This document shows, piece after piece, positions 1 to 15,112 of a DNA stretch of 15,112 nt. Both the position numbers and the translations under genes were made by a program. Every line of letters begins with the position of its first letter. Positions within the stretch are counted from its first letter, which is position 1. Where the stretch lies: the IMG/VR virus record IMGVR_UViG_2541047905_000022; one strand, given 5' to 3'. The notes beneath the pieces are model-generated. The model was given only the letters and a program-made list of their open reading frames with translations, was not told where the DNA came from and did no database searches. The stretch comes from a virus (taxonomy: Duplodnaviria; Heunggongvirae; Uroviricota; Caudoviricetes).

Positions 1-798
1 TTAATGAACATTCGTCGCCGAAAACGAGTCTGTATCATTAGCGTGATGCAGTCTCTGCAAAGGATCTTGTTGATAAAATTGACAGAAACGTTGCCACAAT
101 GAAGGGAAACGAGGAGCAAAAAGTTCTGGGGCGCTAAAGAAATATTCAGAAAGTACGGCAAAACATTCAGCAGGATCACTGGCAGCATAAGCATCAATGC
201 TCGCCGCATTCTCACCAACTAATTCGATTTCTTCCTGAATGTTGTTCATTGCAGCATGAAGATCGTGTTCCCAGCCAGCAACCTCACGCAACGAAATAAA
301 GGGAACTCCGCTGGCGCGATCGCCGTTACGGGTGTCCAGCTTATGAGCGACTTCATGAATAATCAGGTTAAAACCAGAAGCATCAAAAGAATCTTGTATA
401 TCCAACCAGTTCAAAACGATAGGCCCTTGCTGCCAGCTCTGACCTGACTGAACAATACGTTGGTTATGCACCAGACCGATATCGTCTTCCCATTCATCAT
501 CGACCACAAATGGCGCAGGATAAATTAAGACTTCATGAAAACCATCCAGCCATTCCAGTCCTAACTCCAGAACGGGCAGGCAAAATAGAAGTGCTATCCG
601 GCAGCTTCTTAATGAATTCAGCTCAAAGCCCTGTAAAGGAACAAGCCGTTTTTGCTGTAAAAAACGTTCGGCAAGAGCGACCAATTTGCTTTGTTCCTGT
701 TCTGTCAGACACGTTAAAAGGGGGATCGATAGTGCTTCCTGCCAGGGAAGGGCAGTTTGATGTGCTGATTCTTGTACTTTCCAGGGCCACTTAATCAT
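1..798 (-). CDS. mtfA: Mlc titration factor A (MtfA/YeeI), 265 aa
   Basis: ORF 1..837 minus; from the internal Met the product reads [23 protein letters not shown]..., which I recognise as the enterobacterial MtfA N-terminus; HEVAHKLD metallopeptidase-like motif present; stop TAA at 3..1. Start placed at the ATG at 798 rather than the ORF-track start at 837. Confidence 0.9.
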
Positions 799-891
799 CG
801 TTTTGCTCGCAAACTCGTCACTTGAACAAAATTGCACGGACAGGGACTGTTAAAATGCCAAATTTCCTGGCATCATGGCAACCATCTGAAC

Positions 892-1026: not shown

Positions 1027-1062
1027 CTTGGAATTACTTGGAATATTTTCTTGGAATATTTT
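1027..1062. repeat. Tandem direct repeats CTTGGAAT(A/T)(A/T)TT at the attL-proximal end of the integrase gene (possible arm-type integrase binding sites)
   Basis: CTTGGAATTA (1027-1036) followed by two perfect copies of CTTGGAATATTTT (1037-1049, 1050-1062); these overlap the last codons and stop of the integrase gene, immediately next to the tRNA 3' end. Confidence 0.4.
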
Positions 1063-2059
1063 CAGGTAACGGGACATCAAGTGTTGGTGAAACTTTAACC
1101 TTCCTGTCATAGATTAGCACTTGCCCTTCGGTTTTGTGACCAGAGAAAAGTTGCTTATCCCGGCTGCTTCCTTCATAGTCTGAAATTCCTTTCGCCTTCA
1201 GATCATGAAAGGTGAAGTCGGTTAAAATACCTGAAATTTTTCCAGCACGATTTCTTGCTTCTACCCACATTTCGTTAAAGCCTTTGTACATATATCGGTT
1301 GCCGTATTGATTGCTGATCACATAGGCAGATTTTGGTAACTGTTTTGCTTTTTCGATCGCTGCCTGTAATCGTGGACTCCATGCTTTTATCTGTTTTTTT
1401 CCGGTTTTCCCTTGCTGGATGAATATCCCGTCGTTTCCAATCTGTTCCCATTTCAGCGATAACACATCGGAAACCCTCGCTGCACACAGATAGGCAATTT
1501 CCATTGCGATAAAAACAGGAAGAGGTGCAACGCTTAATACTGCCTGGTATTCTTTGTCGGTTACATATCGTTCGCGGTTTTTGGCCTTGAATTTACTTAC
1601 ACCTGCACATGGGTTAGCCTTGACGTACCCTCGCTCATACCCCCAACTGTAAACACGGGACATACTGCTTTTTTCATGGTTGGCTTGCGTTTTACTCTGC
1701 TCCCCTCTTTTGTCCATGTATCGACGGATGTGTTCTGGTTTTATGGAATCCGCTGGTACCTTACCGAATACGGCAAGCAACTTTTTTTGATGTTGCAGAT
1801 AATCTTTTTGTGTTCTTGGACTAAGGTCACTGTAACAGGCGCTGGCGAGGAATTTTTCCCACAAGCGACCGAATGTCATTGCACGATCGCGATTATTTAC
1901 AGTTTCCTCATACTTTTTCCATAAAGCAGCTAAACCATCCTTGATGGCGGTTAGTGTGACAGATTCTCTGGATGTTGGTTTCCATACATAACTATATTTA
2001 TTTGGGTATACATTTGGAGGTAATTTTTCGTGTTCAGGATTTTTCCTTCGTCTTCCCAT
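1034..2059 (-). CDS. int: Phage integrase, tyrosine recombinase family, 341 aa
   Basis: ORF track 1034..2059; C-terminal half carries a tyrosine-recombinase-like signature (CAARVSDVLSLKWEQI ... FTFHDLKAKG ... VLIYDRK); gene ends 52 bp from the tRNA 3' end and points toward it, the classic tRNA-attL-int arrangement. Confidence 0.9.
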   Translation of the reverse strand: MGRRRKNPEHEKLPPNVYPNKYSYVWKPTSRESVTLTAIKDGLAALWKKYEETVNNRDRAMTFGRLWEKFLASACYSDLSPRTQKDYLQHQKKLLAVFGKVPADSIKPEHIRRYMDKRGEQSKTQANHEKSSMSRVYSWGYERGYVKANPCAGVSKFKAKNRERYVTDKEYQAVLSVAPLPVFIAMEIAYLCAARVSDVLSLKWEQIGNDGIFIQQGKTGKKQIKAWSPRLQAAIEKAKQLPKSAYVISNQYGNRYMYKGFNEMWVEARNRAGKISGILTDFTFHDLKAKGISDYEGSSRDKQLFSGHKTEGQVLIYDRKVKVSPTLDVPLPENIPRKYSK

Positions 2060-2320: not shown

Positions 2321-4795
2321 TTAAAAATCAGCCTGACTCGGGATCAGTTTTTGCCAGATAGCTGAAACGTATTTTGCCTGGTAACGAGCGTCATCAAGTG
2401 CATTATGGCGCTCACCTTCGAATGGAATAGCCGTTCTGGCATCGAAGTCTATGGCTTTCCCCAGCTCAACGATTGTGCGTACATCGCGATCGTTGTAGTA
2501 ACGCCACGGGCAGGGGATCCCCTGCCGTTCGTATGAACGGCGCAAAATCGTGTTGTCGAAGTTGGCTCCATTTCCCCAGACCTGAACAAAAAATTCACCG
2601 GAGTTTTCGTCGATAAATTCCCGCAATTGTAACAGTGCATCATCTAACGGGATTTCATCGGTCATAATGGCAGATTGCGCTTCGCGTGATTGCTTAAGCC
2701 ACCATTTAATGGTGTCCCGATCAATGACCCCGCCAGCAGTTTCCAGATCGATAGTCTTACTAAATTCCGGTCCCATATCTCCGGTTTGCGGATCGAAAAA
2801 TATTGCACCTATTGAGATGATCGGGGCATCAGGATTTTTTCCCATGGTTTCAAGGTCGATCATTAGATGGTCACACGTCCTGCTGGTGGATGTGATTTCT
2901 TGATGACCGTTCACCTTAATTGAGTGATCTGCCGTCTCGCCAGTTTCATTATCGCTATCGTGATGCTGATTGCCGCCAGTGTTCTCCTTGTGTGGATGTT
3001 CAGCGCCTTCCATTTCCTCCGGATCATCTTCCTGAACTTCAACCTGATACTCTTCATCGAATGTTTCCTGGTATGTTGCGTCGCCCATCACCGCGCCACA
3101 ATCAGGGTAGTTGCCGCCGCCGGTCTGACCGCAGGCGGTGCAGACTTTTTCCACTTCCTGTTGCGCCACTGGTTCAGGATGTTTCGTTTCTGGCTCGTTT
3201 TGTAACGCATTTGGGCTGTTTTGTTCCGCTTTCTGGCCGTTCTGTTCCGTTTCTTGCTGGTTCTGATTCACTGAATCGCGGGTTTCAATCCCCTTCACCC
3301 ATTTCGGATCATTCGGGTCGCTAATCCCTGCAACAAATTCACCACGTGATACAGCAAGCAACTTATTGGCGTCAGGCTGGCTGATATTGGCTGCCTGCAT
3401 AATTTTGTTTACTTCGTCAGCGGTAACTTTTACCGGCTCTGGTTGTGCGATCGTGTCAGATGCACCAGTATTTTGTTGTGAACCTGAGTACGTGCCGTTT
3501 TTACGTGCGAAGTATTCCTCTTTTGTGATTTCCGTAGCTCCCAGGGCCAGTGCTTTTTCCAGACCAGAAAGTTTGTTTGCGCGACCGTATTTTTCGCCGT
3601 CCTTATCGGTGAAAAGGAAGTAGAACGGTCCCTCACGCTCTACAGATGGTTCGTCTTCCACTTCGCATTCGGTTTTTTCGTTGTCCGGCATTGCCGTTTC
3701 CACTGCATCAGTTTCTGGTACTGGTGACGGGAGAGTACCAGCTGTGCCCTGATTTGTTCCTTCGTCATCTTCAAACACGCCCTTGGTAGTCAGGTATTCA
3801 GTGATGTATTTGTTCAGTGCTACGGGATCTTTGTGAATGTCGATCGGACGCTCACGGACAAGGCCAAAAATAGTCTGACGGTCGTAGCGAACGGCATCGG
3901 GTTGTTTGCGCATTGATGCGGAAATGCGCTTCCAGTCTTCGCGATCTTTGTCGATAACTTCATTTTTTGCCCGGCGATGGATGCTGCCGTCAATGTTTCC
4001 GGTATCAATATCGCCAGGCCAGAGAGCGTAGGCCAGTTCTTCATCCAGCGTTTTCCATGTCTGCTTGTATTCGCGACAAATGGCGGCAGTGACTGGGTTG
4101 ATTTTTCCTGCTGAGTTTTCAGTGTGCTGTTGATTGACTCTGGCGCGGGCGAGATCAACAACAGACGTGTATTTTCCAGTCTCTTTGCGCTCTGCGTCCT
4201 GCCGTTTTTTCCAGTTACGTAATTCAGCCTGAATTTCTGGCCATTTGGCACCCGGATTACATTTGTGTTTAACCCATCCGATAGCGAACAGTTTGCGTTC
4301 CGGATACATAGCGTTAATTTCAGGCGTTTTCATCAGTGCTTCAACGATATGCCCGTCAAAGGTAGCAACGTCTTCCTGCAGTAATTCCTGCGCGTCAATC
4401 GCCATATCAACGGTGATGTTTTCACATGTACCGAACTTAACCAGGACCGCGTTCTGTACTTCAAGGGACAGCTTGTCAAAATTGACGTTCATCGGATCGG
4501 ATTCTGGTTCGACCGGAATAAAGGAAGCGGATTCCTCATCCCAGCGGTTTTCCTGCATATATTCAGCATCCCAGGAATCGAGGGCAGGGCGGGGTATGCC
4601 GGGTTTATCCTCGCAAACAAGAAATTTATAAGCGCAGTCCTGAGCAGCCGGATAATGTTCCAGGAATTGCCAGTGAAATTTTGCGCGGGCGCGACGTTCA
4701 TCACCGGCTTCAATGGCAGTGGCCACCGCAACAGCGCTATCTTCTTTTATGGCCTGTTCGTCAGGAATAGCAGCGCAAATAAAGATTTTACTCAT
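2321..4795 (-). CDS. Large phage protein (824 aa) with C-terminal DnaQ-like DEDDh 3'-5' exonuclease domain
   Basis: ORF 2321..4795; C-terminal ~180 aa carry exonuclease motifs MIDLETMG (Exo I), VWGNGANFDNTIL (Exo II), ERHNALDDARYQAKY (Exo III, DEDDh type); central acidic/Q-rich low-complexity linker and a Cys cluster CTACGQTGGGNYPDCG; GAGG Shine-Dalgarno 10 nt upstream of the ATG at 4795. Confidence 0.85.
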   Translation of the reverse strand: MSKIFICAAIPDEQAIKEDSAVAVATAIEAGDERRARAKFHWQFLEHYPAAQDCAYKFLVCEDKPGIPRPALDSWDAEYMQENRWDEESASFIPVEPESDPMNVNFDKLSLEVQNAVLVKFGTCENITVDMAIDAQELLQEDVATFDGHIVEALMKTPEINAMYPERKLFAIGWVKHKCNPGAKWPEIQAELRNWKKRQDAERKETGKYTSVVDLARARVNQQHTENSAGKINPVTAAICREYKQTWKTLDEELAYALWPGDIDTGNIDGSIHRRAKNEVIDKDREDWKRISASMRKQPDAVRYDRQTIFGLVRERPIDIHKDPVALNKYITEYLTTKGVFEDDEGTNQGTAGTLPSPVPETDAVETAMPDNEKTECEVEDEPSVEREGPFYFLFTDKDGEKYGRANKLSGLEKALALGATEITKEEYFARKNGTYSGSQQNTGASDTIAQPEPVKVTADEVNKIMQAANISQPDANKLLAVSRGEFVAGISDPNDPKWVKGIETRDSVNQNQQETEQNGQKAEQNSPNALQNEPETKHPEPVAQQEVEKVCTACGQTGGGNYPDCGAVMGDATYQETFDEEYQVEVQEDDPEEMEGAEHPHKENTGGNQHHDSDNETGETADHSIKVNGHQEITSTSRTCDHLMIDLETMGKNPDAPIISIGAIFFDPQTGDMGPEFSKTIDLETAGGVIDRDTIKWWLKQSREAQSAIMTDEIPLDDALLQLREFIDENSGEFFVQVWGNGANFDNTILRRSYERQGIPCPWRYYNDRDVRTIVELGKAIDFDARTAIPFEGERHNALDDARYQAKYVSAIWQKLIPSQADF

Positions 4796-5832: not shown

Positions 5833-6002
5833 GATGGCAGCCTCCGCGATGAATTTGATTAACTCACCACCGAGGTTTTCCACGACCATAAGGGTGGTGA
5901 GACGTACAGGGGTGGAAAATACCGGTCATCACGGAACCCGGCCAGCCTTGCGGCTGCCCTGCACGCCCCACCATAATGCGAATGTGGCTGTGCTTAACGC
6001 AT

Positions 6003-6025
6003 AAAAAAACCGCCTGAGCGCGGTT
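6003..6025 (-). terminator. Rho-independent terminator (minus strand) between DicF and rha
   Basis: On the minus strand: stem ACCGC - loop GCTCAG - GCGGT followed by a run of 7 U (plus-strand A7 at 6003-6009). Confidence 0.5.
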
Positions 6026-6318
6026 ATGCGCCGTGAATGATTTCGGGTTTCCACGCCCGGCACCCGTTTTATGAGGTGCAGGTGCACTATAATTCCACCC
6101 GTTCTGGTTTTCAATAGCTACATTCAACATTTTCTCTACCTTTCATCACCGAAGTGAACTTTGTTGATGCGGTGCCTGGTGCCTCCAGGTGACGTTAACC
6201 AGTTAACAATTAACGTCGGATACAGAGCATTCCCGTTACGCCCGTAAAAGACCGCTTGTTTTAACTGTTCCGCGTGCGCTGAGCCGCATTCACCGCATCA
6301 CAAAATTCACTTTAAAAA

Positions 6319-6371
6319 GGGCGGCAGAGCAGTCACGGAGTAGAACTGATACCGCCAAAAGTCACCAGAAA
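6319..6371 (-). ncRNA. dicF: DicF small regulatory RNA (ftsZ-targeting antisense sRNA of dicB-type prophage operons)
   Basis: Minus-strand sequence TTTCTGGTGACTTTTGGCGGTATCAGTTCTACTCCGTGACTGCTCTGCCGCCC followed by TTTTT differs at only 2 of 53 positions from the E. coli K-12 DicF sequence as I recall it; located upstream of dicB as expected. Confidence 0.85.
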
Positions 6372-11696: not shown

Positions 11697-12383
11697 ATGA
11701 CCCCAATAAAAATATTTATGACTATTGCTGATTTCAAACGGCCTAAATTGGAGCTCCCAAACGGGGCAAACAAACTACTACTGCACTCTTGCTGTGCTCC
11801 ATGTTCCGGTGAAGTGATGGAGGCGCTTCAGGCCTCGGGAATCGACTACACCATCTTTTTCTACAACCCGAACATTCATCCTCAGAAAGAGTATTTAATT
11901 CGTAAGGATGAAAATATTCGCTTTGCTGAACAACACGGCGTGCCGTTTATCGATGCTGATTACGACACCGACAACTGGTTTGAACGTGCCAAAGGAATGG
12001 AATGGGAGCCTGAGAGGGGGATCCGTTGTACCATGTGTTTTGACATGCGTTTTGAGCGGACAGCGTTGTACGCTGCTGAAAATGGTTTCAGTGTGATCAG
12101 CAGTTCACTGGGCATTTCACGCTGGAAAAATATGCAGCAGGTTAACGAGTGTGGGCGGCGAGCTGTTGCGCATTATCCGGGTATGGTGTACTGGGATTAT
12201 AACTGGCGCAAGCAGGGCGGCTCGTCCCGTATGATTGAAATCAGCAAGCGCGAAAAATTCTATCAGCAGGAATATTGTGGCTGTGTGTATTCTCTGCGCG
12301 ATACCAATCTACACCGCAAATCTCAGGGACGCCCTCTTATCAAAATTGGCCAACTCCACTACGGAAAAGAAGAGAAGGAGTGA
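11697..12383 (+). CDS. queH: Epoxyqueuosine reductase QueH (DUF208 family), 228 aa
   Basis: ORF 11697..12383; hallmark QueH motifs [14 protein letters not shown] (N-terminal), [15 protein letters not shown] (central) and [13 protein letters not shown] (C-terminal). No clear Shine-Dalgarno before either candidate ATG (11697 or 11718), so the start is uncertain. Confidence 0.8.
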
Positions 12384-12444: not shown

Positions 12445-12499
12445 GGCTGCGGGTGCTTGAGGCTATCTGTCTCAGGCATGAACACTGAAAGGCAGATAG

Positions 12500-12572
12500 A
12501 GAAAAGCCCCAGTTAACATTTCGCGTCCTGCAAGACGCTTAACATTAATCTGAGGCCCAATCTATGTCTCAC
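12500..12572 (-). ncRNA. Candidate Sok-like antisense RNA of the hok locus
   Basis: Minus-strand -35 TTGCCT (12607..12602), 17-nt spacer, -10 TAACCT (12584..12579); the predicted antisense transcript would cover the GAGG Shine-Dalgarno (12552-12555) and in-frame upstream ATG (12564) of the hok leader. The 3' end is not defined; a GCGTC/GACGC hairpin lies at about 12522-12537. Confidence 0.3.
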
Positions 12573-12620
12573 AAATGTAGGTTAGCCTCTTACGTGCCGA
12601 AAGGCAAGGGGAAGCAGGCT

Positions 12621-12776
12621 ATGAAGCAGCAAAAGGCGATGTTAATCGCCCTGATCGTCATCTGTTTAACCGTCATTGTGACGGCACTGGTAACGAGGAA
12701 AGACCTCTGCGAGGTACGAATCCGAACCGGCCAGACGGAGGTCGCTGTCTTCACAGCTTACGAACCTGAGGAGTAA
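12621..12776 (+). CDS. hok: Hok/Gef family type I toxin (HokD/RelF-like), 51 aa
   Basis: ATG at 12621; product MKQQKAMLIALIVICLTVIVTALVTRKDLCEVRIRTGQTEVAVFTAYEPEE, which I recognise as Hok-family (essentially HokD/RelF); single transmembrane helix plus conserved C-terminal tail. The ORF track extends it in-frame to 12564 (70 aa), a mok-like upstream start. Confidence 0.85.
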   Translation: MKQQKAMLIALIVICLTVIVTALVTRKDLCEVRIRTGQTEVAVFTAYEPEE

Positions 12777-12845: not shown

Positions 12846-12866
12846 ACCCGCTTCGGCGGGTTTTTG
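12846..12866 (+). terminator. Rho-independent terminator of the hok mRNA
   Basis: Stem CCCGC - loop TTCG - GCGGG (12847-12860) followed by TTTTT (12861-12865). Confidence 0.7.
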
Positions 12867-12877
12867 CATTAGTCTGG

Positions 12878-12906
12878 TTGACAAAAATAGAAAAATGCGA
12901 AAATAT
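12878..12906 (+). promoter_or_regulatory. Candidate promoter for the two-gene cassette
   Basis: Perfect -35 TTGACA at 12878-12883; 17-nt spacer; weak -10 AAATAT (12901-12906); about 36 nt upstream of the ATG at 12942. Confidence 0.35.
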
Positions 12907-12941
12907 GTGGTTTACGAATTCTAAAAAAAGCGAAACTTGAA

Positions 12942-13592
12942 ATGAATGAAAATCAGTTAGCTCCTTGTTGGGAATTTCAACCTTATCTTGCTGAAAACTA
13001 TGTTCGCCACTTGTTGGCGGAGATCGCTAACGTACTTGAGCAGCTGTACTATCATAAGCACGCATTAGACAGCAACTGGTCTGAAGGTGTAAGGGCTTAT
13101 GATTGGGTCAGAAATCATCTTATTCAAAATGAAGATGCAATTCCTGGCCTTGAGATGATTTCCAAGGGGTTGGACTATGTAGTTGCTTTAAATAAAGTTC
13201 CGCTACAATTTACCAAAGATTGCATTAATAACCCCAAAAAGAAACATCGTCTGCGTCGAAATAAAGTAGAGTATGAGCAGCTCTCATTGTTTGGTGATGT
13301 TGAGGCTGAGCAAGATATTACATGGCGAGTCATAGCTGAGCCTTTTTTATCCGAAGAGGGCGATGGTGAATTAGAGTCCACACTGCCTCGTTGGGAGGTA
13401 GCTCTTGTTGGATTTAATACTTATGGTGCTCAGATTAGTATAGTTTCTCATCAATCTACAGCATCGATGCCGCTTATGCCTCTTGATTATAACACACTCC
13501 CTGACGAAGCGGAGATTAATAAGGTGCCTCTTCGTCGGCGTACGAAGGATAAAGATTTGGATGTGAGCAGTGATGGAACATCAGGTGAATAA
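12942..13592 (+). CDS. Hypothetical protein of unknown function, 216 aa (first gene of a two-gene cassette)
   Basis: ORF 12942..13592; no family recognised; helical N-terminal half, basic patch KKKHRLRRNK, acidic C-terminal tail; visibly more AT-rich than the flanking replication genes; 3' end overlaps the next gene by 20 nt. Confidence 0.7.
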   Translation: MNENQLAPCWEFQPYLAENYVRHLLAEIANVLEQLYYHKHALDSNWSEGVRAYDWVRNHLIQNEDAIPGLEMISKGLDYVVALNKVPLQFTKDCINNPKKKHRLRRNKVEYEQLSLFGDVEAEQDITWRVIAEPFLSEEGDGELESTLPRWEVALVGFNTYGAQISIVSHQSTASMPLMPLDYNTLPDEAEINKVPLRRRTKDKDLDVSSDGTSGE

Positions 13593-14676
13593 CTTCACTG
13601 AGTATCGGGGTGATAAGCTCAAACTAGCGAGAATGGCTGTTGGGCTTTCTTGTGAAGAGTTAGCCGAAAAAATTGGCAAGACAAAGCAATTCGTTAGCAA
13701 ACTGGAGAAGGGGTGCAGGCCATCGGAGCAATGTCTTGAGTTAATATCTTCAGCGCTTATGATTAAGTCCAGTTTTCTTTTTACTGAACGAAAATACGCT
13801 CTGGAAAGTGATGTCTGCCATTTTCGGAGTAAGAAGTCCAGGACTCAAACGCTGACTAATAGTGTATTGGCCAGGGCTGAGATTCTTAATATTATAATTT
13901 CTGCTGTTGAAGGTGAAATCGAATTTCCTGACGTTAACATACCGGAGCACCCAGGGGCTGAATTACTTACTCCGAATGATATTGAGCGAGTGGCAGAAGA
14001 TTGTCGCCGTGCCTGGAATTTAGGTCTTGGCCCTATATCATCAATGGTTAAATTGGCGGAGAGTTTAGGGGTAATCGTTGCGCATGTTACGGGAGTCGAT
14101 GATCGTGTTGATGCTTTTACTGTTCACAATAACAGGCCTGTTATCATCAGGAACAATGTTAAAAAAAGCATATGTAGATTTCGCTCTGATTTAGGTCATG
14201 AATTAGGGCATTTAGTAATGCATGAGGGCATAACGACAGGTGATAAACTTACGGAATCACAAGCCGATCACTTTTCGAGCGCCTTATTAGTTCCCAGGTT
14301 ATCTTTCATTAAAGAATTTCCACGAATACGAGGTAAGCAATTCGACTGGAATGCTCTGGTTGAATTTAAACTTAGATGGAAAATCAGCCTTAAAATGTGT
14401 ATTTATCGAGCCAGCGCATTAGGCTTATTGACCCAGGAACAGGCAAGAACTGGCTATATGCATCTTAATTCCAGAGGGTATACGAGAGTTGAACCTGGTG
14501 ATGAACTTTTGCGCCCTGAAGAACCCGGCATGCTGGCCGAGGCGATTGAAATGCTGGATGATGCAACCTGGCTAAGAATTCTTATGAAAACTGGCTTGAG
14601 CCAAGATTTAATTCGTGAGTTGTTCTCCATCAACAGACCTATTACAAATCCAAGAAATATTTTCCAGATTGTTTGA
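13573..14676 (+). CDS. HTH XRE-family regulator fused to ImmA/IrrE-type (M78, COG2856) zinc metallopeptidase domain, 367 aa
   Basis: ORF 13570..14676 with ATG at 13573; N-terminal HTH LKLARMAVGLSCEELAEKIGKTKQFVSKLEKG; peptidase HEXXH motif in DLGHELGHLVMHE; domain order HTH then ImmA-like is the fused version of ImmR/ImmA or CapH/CapP-type regulator pairs. Confidence 0.8.
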   Translation: MEHQVNNFTEYRGDKLKLARMAVGLSCEELAEKIGKTKQFVSKLEKGCRPSEQCLELISSALMIKSSFLFTERKYALESDVCHFRSKKSRTQTLTNSVLARAEILNIIISAVEGEIEFPDVNIPEHPGAELLTPNDIERVAEDCRRAWNLGLGPISSMVKLAESLGVIVAHVTGVDDRVDAFTVHNNRPVIIRNNVKKSICRFRSDLGHELGHLVMHEGITTGDKLTESQADHFSSALLVPRLSFIKEFPRIRGKQFDWNALVEFKLRWKISLKMCIYRASALGLLTQEQARTGYMHLNSRGYTRVEPGDELLRPEEPGMLAEAIEMLDDATWLRILMKTGLSQDLIRELFSINRPITNPRNIFQIV

Positions 14677-14681
14677 GTATA

Positions 14682-14706
14682 CCCGCTTCGGCGGGTTTTT
14701 TGTTTT
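14682..14706 (+). terminator. Rho-independent terminator after the HTH-peptidase gene
   Basis: Stem CCCGC - TTCG - GCGGG (14682-14695) followed by TTTTTTGTTTTT; the 20-nt core ACCCGCTTCGGCGGGTTTTT is identical to the terminator at 12846-12865. Confidence 0.7.
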
Positions 14707-14887: not shown

Positions 14888-15112
14888 TGAACCGCCCCGG
14901 GTTTCCTGGAGAGTATTTTATCTGTGAACTCAGGCTGCCAGATCATCGTTTCCGATGGAAGCATAATAAGCTTTTTCTGCTTCTGCCGGAGGAGTATGGC
15001 CCAGCCTTTCCAGCAATCGTCGATTGTTATACCAGTCCACCCACGTGAGTGTGGCCAGTTCCACTTCTGCACGGTTTTTCCAGCTCTTACGGTGTATTAC
15101 CTCCGCTTTGTA
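14888..15112 (-). mobile_element. IS3-family insertion sequence, IS629/IS1203-like, terminal portion (element continues beyond the window)
   Basis: Sequence from 14888, TGAACCGCCCCGGGTTTCCTGGAGAGTATTTTATCTGTGAACTCAGG, matches the IS629-type terminal inverted repeat as I recall it; followed on the minus strand by the C-terminal end of an IS3-family OrfB transposase. Confidence 0.8.
14930..15112 (-). CDS. IS3-family transposase OrfB, C-terminal 60 codons (5'-partial, start outside window)
   Basis: Minus-strand translation ...YKAEVIHRKSWKNRAEVELATLTWVDWYNNRRLLERLGHTPPAEAEKAYYASIGNDDLAA then stop (TGA, plus 14930-14932); the WVDWYNNRRL motif is the conserved DDE-integrase C-terminal signature of IS3-family transposases. 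Confidence 0.8.
   Translation of the reverse strand, partial: YKAEVIHRKSWKNRAEVELATLTWVDWYNNRRLLERLGHTPPAEAEKAYYASIGNDDLAA

Follow-up and report, generated by a model that had tools for sequence, protein, structure and literature searches.

A RosmerTA-type two-gene cassette in an Escherichia coli prophage and a sliding-clamp-binding-type motif in its putative toxin

What is encoded by two overlapping, AT-rich genes lying towards the right end of a 15,112-nt stretch of DNA from an Escherichia coli prophage (IMG/VR virus record IMGVR_UViG_2541047905_000022; this whole stretch is called the window below)? A sequence-only reading of the window had described them as a 216-aa protein of no family followed by a fusion of an XRE-type helix-turn-helix (HTH) with an ImmA/IrrE (M78) metallopeptidase, and had put the pair forward as an undescribed system. 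We consider it highly probable that they form a two-gene toxin-antitoxin (TA) and anti-phage module of the RosmerTA type, and that this module is an autonomous moron of a lambdoid prophage integrated at serU. All coordinates are positions in the window, and the cassette is on the plus strand. The genes and domains concerned are the following:

12942..13592, plus strand: rmrT, putative toxin, 216 aa (PADLOC RmrT model PDLC03929; phrog_5786)
13573..14676, plus strand: rmrA, antitoxin/regulator, 367 aa (PADLOC RmrA model PDLC03943; phrog_2439)
13618..13758, plus strand: XRE-type HTH of RmrA (Pfam HTH_3, E 5e-7, aa 17-63)
14098..14415, plus strand: ImmA/IrrE (M78) zinc-peptidase domain of RmrA (Pfam Peptidase_M78, E 6e-11, aa 177-282)
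14197-14211, plus strand: HELGH, within the M78 domain and followed by the TESQADHFSSALLVP segment
13278..13292, plus strand: codons of the QLSLF motif (RmrT aa 113-117), which equals the beta-clamp-binding consensus QL(S/D)LF

We compared both proteins with the PADLOC defence-system models. RmrT matched PDLC03929 (E 4.6e-25, 86 bits) over aa 7-209 of 216 and positions 5-195 of 198 of the profile, while RmrA matched PDLC03943 (E 6e-105, 349 bits, aa 12-351) and 13 further PADLOC RmrA models. RmrA was also recognized by the NCBIfam model for the spr1629-family repressor/antitoxin (E 1.5e-45; 156 bits, below the equivalog cut-off of 335). In PHROGs, the family of RmrT is listed with unknown function. 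Pfam and NCBIfam gave no match for RmrT, and a profile search of PDB sequences returned only noise (E >= 0.24). Because the PADLOC models match both proteins full-length, the claim of an undescribed system fails, as both fit profiles of RosmerTA (Millman et al. 2022). Nor does the 216-aa protein stand outside every family, since all 60 of the 60 family members tested match PDLC03929. The sequence-only reading had allowed that a hit to a well-characterized family would speak against novelty; such a hit was obtained as far as cataloguing goes, and the literature searched held no biochemical function for this toxin. RosmerTA is an already catalogued kind of system, and judging from the sequences the existing defence-system profiles recognise the pair.

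The gene arrangement that had been described was borne out by the open reading frames (ORFs), by Pfam and by RefSeq. An alternative GTG start at 13570 would give an RmrA of 368 aa; as RefSeq places the start of rmrA at the ATG at 13573, the two genes overlap by 20 nt. In E. coli 042 the RefSeq entries are WP_001004956.1 (hypothetical protein) and WP_000401168.1 (helix-turn-helix domain-containing protein). The HTH of RmrA gave matches to SinR and the 434 repressor among PDB sequences. The HEXXH motif, said to be intact, is present as HELGH and is invariant among relatives: H209, E210, H213, H217, E228 and F234 did not vary in 8 sequences down to 27% identity, and the zinc-peptidase site of RmrA is intact and conserved. 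The locus thus shows the features of a RosmerTA operon, namely a co-oriented adjacent pair with an overlap, a single leader and a single terminator, an HTH/M78 protein with an intact HExxH that fits an RmrA profile, and a partner that fits an RmrT profile.

In the original description of RosmerTA, a Zn-peptidase antitoxin accompanies a toxin whose function is unknown, and a delta-rmrA mutant proved unobtainable (Millman et al. 2022). Diverse RmrT toxins were later found to pair with an ImmA-type RmrA hub, and a second system, from phage Kita, was validated (Ernits et al. 2023). Phage defence has been shown for two Rosmer systems, those of E. coli OLC-716 and phage Kita (Millman et al. 2022; Ernits et al. 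2023). The RmrA of the verified OLC-716 system is 29% identical to the RmrA of the window over 300 aa. The toxins differ more, since the OLC-716 RmrT fits PDLC03935 whereas that of the window fits PDLC03929. A comparison of the two toxin families by hhalign was not significant (probability 0.5%), although colinear and with the motifs described below in register. Four genomes of the Millman dataset that carry the cassette were not found in the roughly 88% of the preprint's RosmerTA table (Table S11) that was covered. The sequence-only reading had guessed at prophage cargo forming a self-contained module, of the toxin-regulator or the superinfection-exclusion kind, and as far as sequence comparison can tell this appears to have been right.

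We further examined how constantly the two genes occur together. The toxin family is small (just 69 clusters at 50% identity in a library-wide hidden Markov model search, nearly all of them of about 200 aa). A neighbourhood survey of homologues, which had been suggested as a check, showed that all the complete neighbourhoods have an HTH-M78 gene after the toxin gene. Even in distant contexts (Xenorhabdus, Desulforhopalus, gammaproteobacterial metagenome-assembled genomes and marine metagenomes), an overlapping HTH_3 plus Peptidase_M78 gene of 359-377 aa was present downstream in 6/6 complete cases, with a seventh ending at the contig end. The flanks of these distant pairs vary and include prophage genes, integrases, RES and HigB. 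Starting from RmrA relatives in IMG/VR (to about 40% identity), 76 of the 79 ORFs directly upstream belonged to the RmrT family of the window. The pairing is not due to chance, since, of 5426 complete E. coli genomes, 237 carry rmrT and the same 237 carry rmrA, which is complete in every one of them. The sole two disruptions among these genomes, an IS5 insertion (FDAARGOS_1249) and a 78% copy, both strike rmrT; this is the asymmetry expected of a TA pair, though n=2.

In E. coli FDAARGOS_1249 (locus L091, 1800-3359), IS5 interrupts rmrT in its 5' part; a 140-aa remnant of the toxin is left beside an intact rmrA, and this copy of the cassette is a naturally occurring knock-out of the toxin. The cassette was 100% identical across many E. 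coli genomes, and its carriers include E. coli 042 and ABU 83972. A copy 99.8-100% identical was also seen on the 237-kb plasmid NZ_AP026904.1 of E. coli MY504 (about 200346-202080). With 2 of about 240 places on plasmids, the cassette is not confined to chromosomal prophages. In INPHARED phages the 65-nt hok terminator gave the only DNA match, and tblastn with RmrT found nothing. As related phages lack the cassette, it is accessory.

The limits of the cassette and its control elements could be placed as follows:

12846..12865, plus strand: left 20-nt direct repeat ACCCGCTTCGGCGGGTTTTT, the hok terminator hairpin (called as a terminator-like site), marking the insertion site
12866..14700, plus strand: inserted cassette (moron) of 1835 bp, with leader, rmrT, rmrA and terminator, from the empty-site comparison
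12876..12941, plus strand: leader of two tandem 33-nt units (12876-12908 and 12909-12941), 20/33 identical
12878-12883, plus strand: -35 element TTGACA, conserved in the cassette alignment
12898-12901, 12910-12915 and 12931-12934, plus strand: conserved leader blocks CGAA, GTTnAC and CGnA
12901-12906, plus strand: candidate -10 element AAATAT, 17-nt spacer, 3/6 match to the consensus
14681..14702, plus strand: intrinsic terminator of the cassette, called; its bases 14681-14700 form the right-hand repeat

The two ACCCGCTTCGGCGGGTTTTT copies are 100% identical and spaced 1835 nt apart. In phage mEp460, which is without the cassette, the hok terminator continues straight into the sequence found here beyond the right-hand repeat, and because of this direct junction we regard the cassette as a clean 1835-bp insertion. 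The sequence duplicated at its two ends is the terminator of hok. The terminator scan placed a hairpin at 14681-14696, followed by a T-run. The distinct composition that had been claimed is also real, with a GC content of 0.417 in the cassette against 0.515 in the replication genes (whole window 0.47); the integrase gene is equally AT-rich (0.422).

The pair had been said to have its own promoter and terminator. The terminator was called and the TTGACA leader is conserved; the promoter with TTGACA went uncalled in a consensus scan, because the candidate -10 matches the consensus at just 3/6 positions. Unit 1 of the leader reads TTGACA-N17-AAATAT and unit 2 TTTACG-N17-AACTTG. We aligned the leaders of 10 cassettes (RmrA identities from 93% down to 50%, plus Xenorhabdus) and observed the invariant blocks TTGaCaAA, CGAA, GTTnAC and CGnA. 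The likeness between the cassettes starts at GGTTGAC, and the sequence to the left of this point is unrelated. It is likely from these patterns that unit 1 is the promoter, and the repeated units are a putative operator for RmrA. In the distant homologues, unit 2 is a closer copy of unit 1 (TTGAC-N17-AAATAT occurs twice) and the start codon lies some 40 nt farther to the 3' side. In the E. coli leader unit 2 has decayed, and it abuts the ATG of rmrT.

How might such a pair work? By analogy with other Rosmer systems, RmrT would be toxic, and RmrA with its HTH and M78 peptidase would keep it harmless. RmrA probably represses the operon through binding of its HTH to the repeated leader elements, and together with ClpX/ClpP, in a peptidase-dependent step, it probably holds RmrT inactive or at a low level. 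Phage infection would disturb this control, and the freed RmrT would stop the cell, and hence the phage too. As to its target, the freed RmrT may occupy the peptide pocket of DnaN through its QLSLF motif, so that replication stalls.

The bacterial beta-clamp-binding consensus is QL(S/D)LF (PMC9690074). Our AlphaFold2 (AF2) model of RmrT was built from 48 sequences (mean predicted local distance difference test score, pLDDT, 67; predicted template modelling score 0.60) and began with two helices and three strands; a low-confidence segment at 101-123 separates these from three more strands, after which comes a disordered acidic tail. Such profile and structure checks had been proposed for the 216-aa protein, and they yielded this alpha/beta model and the PADLOC and PHROGs matches, with the Pfam, NCBIfam and PDB profile searches being null. 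The low-confidence segment reads EYEQLSLFGD. The 25 most conserved positions of the family include 110, 113 and 116 (E110 in 55/60, Q113 in 48/60 and L116 in 42/60 sequences), and yet these three lie in the segment of lowest pLDDT. A loose clamp-motif pattern was present in 47 of the 60 family sequences, as compared to 9.8 +/- 2.9 in shuffles, and a strict pattern in 13, as compared to 0.15. The enteric members all carry Q[LMF][STDK][LM]F, and the distant ones QSLSLF, xDDLF or YDLF followed by acidic residues. An exact QL[SD]LF would be expected in 216 aa with a chance of about 5e-4, an estimate from typical amino-acid frequencies for a motif that was noticed post hoc.

When we examined the verified RmrT family, we observed QLKLDL in a disordered loop at 134-157, with the variants QLNLDL, QLTLDF and QMDLDL; its Vibrio-type members have a 12-residue deletion and NLDLF. 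The flexibility of the loop is taken from low pLDDT, a proxy for disorder, in the models of these two families (window and verified). The models also suggest that the two share one common alpha/beta fold.

A second survey covered other RmrA clades in IMG/VR. An upstream partner was present at 76 of 80 loci, nearly all of 205-260 aa, and these gave 64 unique sequences in 9 BLAST clusters. At one aligned block the consensus of the 64 partners was Q-[LI]-[DS]-[LF]-F, with the following counts:

Position 1 (of 64): Q 42, T 11, N 4
Position 2 (of 64): L 19, I 14, P 12, M 8
Position 3 (of 64): D 21, S 19
Position 4 (of 64): L 30, F 15
Position 5 (of 64): F 31, D 11, L 8

The hhalign comparison of the RmrT family of the window with the 64-partner set gave a borderline result (49.7% probability, E 1.7e-4) in which the motifs were aligned in register, and that of the verified family with the same set was not significant. 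In IMG/VR 2728369130_000009 (loci L088/L095), an RmrA relative of 35% identity is paired with a 214-aa toxin of a different family, PDLC03933 (L088 1873-2517). The sole clamp-motif-like peptide of this toxin is QLVGF, which is near the C-terminus and not in a loop, and no further relatives of it were found in IMG/VR.

We are tentatively of the opinion that the RmrT of the window is a soluble alpha/beta clamp-binding toxin that poisons replication through QLSLF in the DnaN pocket, as the genetics suggests for RipA and as is known for SocB. A wider version of this idea, which seems to us conceivable though still in some doubt, is that the soluble Rosmer toxins (about 200-260 aa), which fall into several families that cannot be linked by sequence, are all sliding-clamp poisons with Q-[LI]-[DS]-[LF]-F on a disordered loop. 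What the comparisons suggest as new here is the clamp-binding-type motif in RmrT; the kind of system itself has been known since 2022.

A close published parallel is RipAB (Spr1630/Spr1629) of Streptococcus pneumoniae, which has been assigned to the Rosmer family (PLoS Genet 2025; PMC12795458). Its antitoxin is likewise an XRE plus ImmA-like protein, and it is the spr1629-family model that RmrA of the window matches. Suppressors of RipA toxicity map to the hydrophobic pocket of DnaN, and the action of RipB requires ClpX (PMC12795458). This pocket, through which RipA acts, is the binding place of QL(S/D)LF peptides, and the RmrT of the window carries QLSLF. No binding motif is mentioned for RipAB in that paper, which was the only report in the literature searched to link a Rosmer system with the sliding clamp; we found no report there of a clamp-binding motif in an RmrT. 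RipAB has a chromosomal location and a link to competence, not to phage defence; the pair of the window is prophage-borne, and the two toxins are compared here by the published genetics only.

In SocAB, a type VI TA system, the toxin blocks replication at the beta clamp, which is the working principle that we propose for RmrT. SocA is reportedly a ClpXP adaptor, and SocB is said to be curbed through ClpXP and not by a labile antitoxin. As a small protease adaptor, SocA differs from RmrA, an HTH-metallopeptidase. SocB of Caulobacter crescentus binds the beta clamp via a clamp-binding motif (PMC9690074). The authors of the RipAB study found no relation between SocAB and RipAB (PMC12795458).

Dependence on ClpX or ClpP recurs elsewhere. 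A prophage TA system in E. coli E101 renders clpP essential (Rousset et al.), and this system is cited for the Zn-peptidase-antitoxin configuration (Millman et al. 2022). A suppressor in the E101 toxin lies at T46, and the verified RmrT also has T at 46, a weak hint that the two are of the same family. Essentiality is also reported in Pectobacteriaceae, of rmrA and, in the three RosmerTA-bearing strains only, of clpX. If RmrT is indeed a clamp poison, this would generalise the RipA genetics, converge with SocB, and explain the need of RosmerTA cells for ClpX/ClpP; it joins the dnaN suppressors of RipA with the essentiality of clpX/clpP in pneumococcus, E. coli E101 and Pectobacteriaceae. The cassette of the window would then halt replication that depends on the host clamp once an infecting phage disturbs the HTH-peptidase guard. 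The QLSLF-type loop is in any case a testable lead on the action of most Rosmer toxins, with the replication sliding clamp as the suggested target. In practical terms, a cassette present in about 4% of complete E. coli genomes, where its genes bear generic annotations, can now be labelled correctly.

Could the conserved loop serve a different purpose? It could be a site at which RmrA or ClpX docks, or at which the toxin is cleaved, with the toxin hitting another target. We take this as the main rival reading and think it rather less likely than clamp binding: ImmA-type M78 peptidases cleave their partners at specific exposed sites, as ImmA cleaves ImmR (Ernits et al. 2023), the motif loop of RmrT is exposed or disordered, Rosmer neutralisation depends on ClpX/ClpP, and E110, Q113 and L116 have a helix-like spacing. 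However, the consensus of the roughly 64 partners equals the clamp consensus residue by residue, and a cleavage site is not expected to converge in this way. The RipA suppressors in the DnaN peptide pocket also argue against a loop that is for docking or cleavage only. The two functions are mutually compatible. It is improbable, in our estimate, that RmrT is a nuclease effector of the PD-(D/E)xK type which, perhaps while held to the clamp, degrades DNA when activated. None of the three RmrT alignments examined contained a conserved D...(D/E)xK catalytic signature.

A membrane-depolarising activity is the sole biochemical activity reported for a protein named RmrT, that of Gordonia phage Kita (Ernits et al. 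2023), and work on Pectobacteriaceae names it again as the activity of the family. Such an activity is very improbable for the protein studied here, which is acidic and soluble-looking, has no membrane segment (maximum 19-residue Kyte-Doolittle score 0.84), matches a different RmrT model and was modelled as a globular alpha/beta fold. A membrane toxin was therefore rejected on its lack of a hydrophobic segment and on its fold. We likewise have little belief that the pair is mainly a prophage addiction or stabilisation module, or an induction regulator like ImmR/ImmA, with no role in defence. It does have a TA architecture on a mobile element, RipAB has a role in competence rather than a shown one in defence, and RmrA has the same domain types (XRE HTH and M78 peptidase) as ImmR/ImmA of ICEBs1 and CapH/CapP, the regulators of CBASS (cyclic-oligonucleotide-based anti-phage signalling systems). 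It matched the capP and capH profiles weakly (E 1.6e-14 and 1.5e-4). In ImmR/ImmA and CapH/CapP, though, the domains are separate proteins and a neighbouring operon is switched on, whereas RmrA is a fused protein of 367 aa paired with a toxin, with a terminator directly downstream that ends the cassette and no regulated operon beyond it. The prophage also encodes its own CI-like repressor, Cro-region and Rha genes, and the cassette is missing from related phages. A prophage immunity switch or CapH/CapP-like regulator was rejected on these grounds of fused domains, own terminator and separate CI-like repressor. Two Rosmer systems defend against phages, and addiction and defence are compatible with each other. 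PD-lambda-2 (Vassallo et al. 2022) was considered as well; it is a three-gene system that starts with a HigB-like component, and its Xre-peptidase protein is the toxic one. The proteins of the window had no match to the PADLOC PD-Lambda-2 models.

Several points weigh against RmrT being the clamp-binding toxin of a RosmerTA module as proposed. The toxicity, neutralisation and phage defence of this subtype are extrapolated from other Rosmer systems, and the verified OLC-716 toxin has no sequence similarity to RmrT that pairwise comparison could detect. The membrane-depolarising RmrT of phage Kita means that Rosmer toxins are not uniform. The motif was noticed only post hoc, and the distant members with xDDLF or YDLF do not have the Q. 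E110, Q113 and L116 are spaced i, i+3, i+6, and AF2 placed a low-confidence helix at 108-115; the QLSLF loop may instead serve RmrA for docking or cleavage, or form a structural helix. On the side of expression, the -10 element is weak and no Shine-Dalgarno sequence is evident before rmrT.

The cassette lies in a cargo cluster with queH and hok, as had been claimed and as Pfam confirmed. The neighbouring features are:

892-981: tRNA-Ser (anticodon CGA), adjoining the phage integrase gene
1034-2059, minus strand: phage integrase gene, beside the tRNA-Ser
5890-5978, minus strand: C4 antisense RNA, above the Rfam gathering threshold
6003-6079, minus strand: isrK small RNA, above the Rfam gathering threshold
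6319-6370, minus strand: DicF small RNA, above the Rfam gathering threshold
11697-12383: QueH, full-length homologue of epoxyqueuosine reductase (Pfam E 1e-65)
12451-12776: hok/sok type I TA locus, directly upstream of the cassette (Rfam sok, 120 bits)
12564-12776: Hok (Pfam HOK_GEF)
14889-15112: IS3-family element with the end sequence TGAACCGCCCCGGG..., transposase C-terminus on the minus strand

The queH gene is prophage cargo between the replication genes and hok, and the order QueH-hokD-cassette was also seen in E. coli FDAARGOS_1249. As the tRNA-Ser abuts the integrase gene, the left end of the window looks like a prophage attachment junction, and the ORF at 1-837 (minus strand) would in that case be host flank. 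An 824-aa protein (2321-4795, minus strand) has a single recognised part, a C-terminal Rv2179c-like 3'-5' exonuclease domain (aa 643-814), and its first ~640 residues matched no Pfam family. C4, isrK and DicF stand in a row (5890-6370, minus strand) upstream of the Rha-family gene. The exact junction of the IS3-family element with the small rem gene was not found in one piece among the complete E. coli genomes of our collection. The element splits rem just 3' of the cassette, and in E. coli 042 the sequence at this place is uninterrupted.

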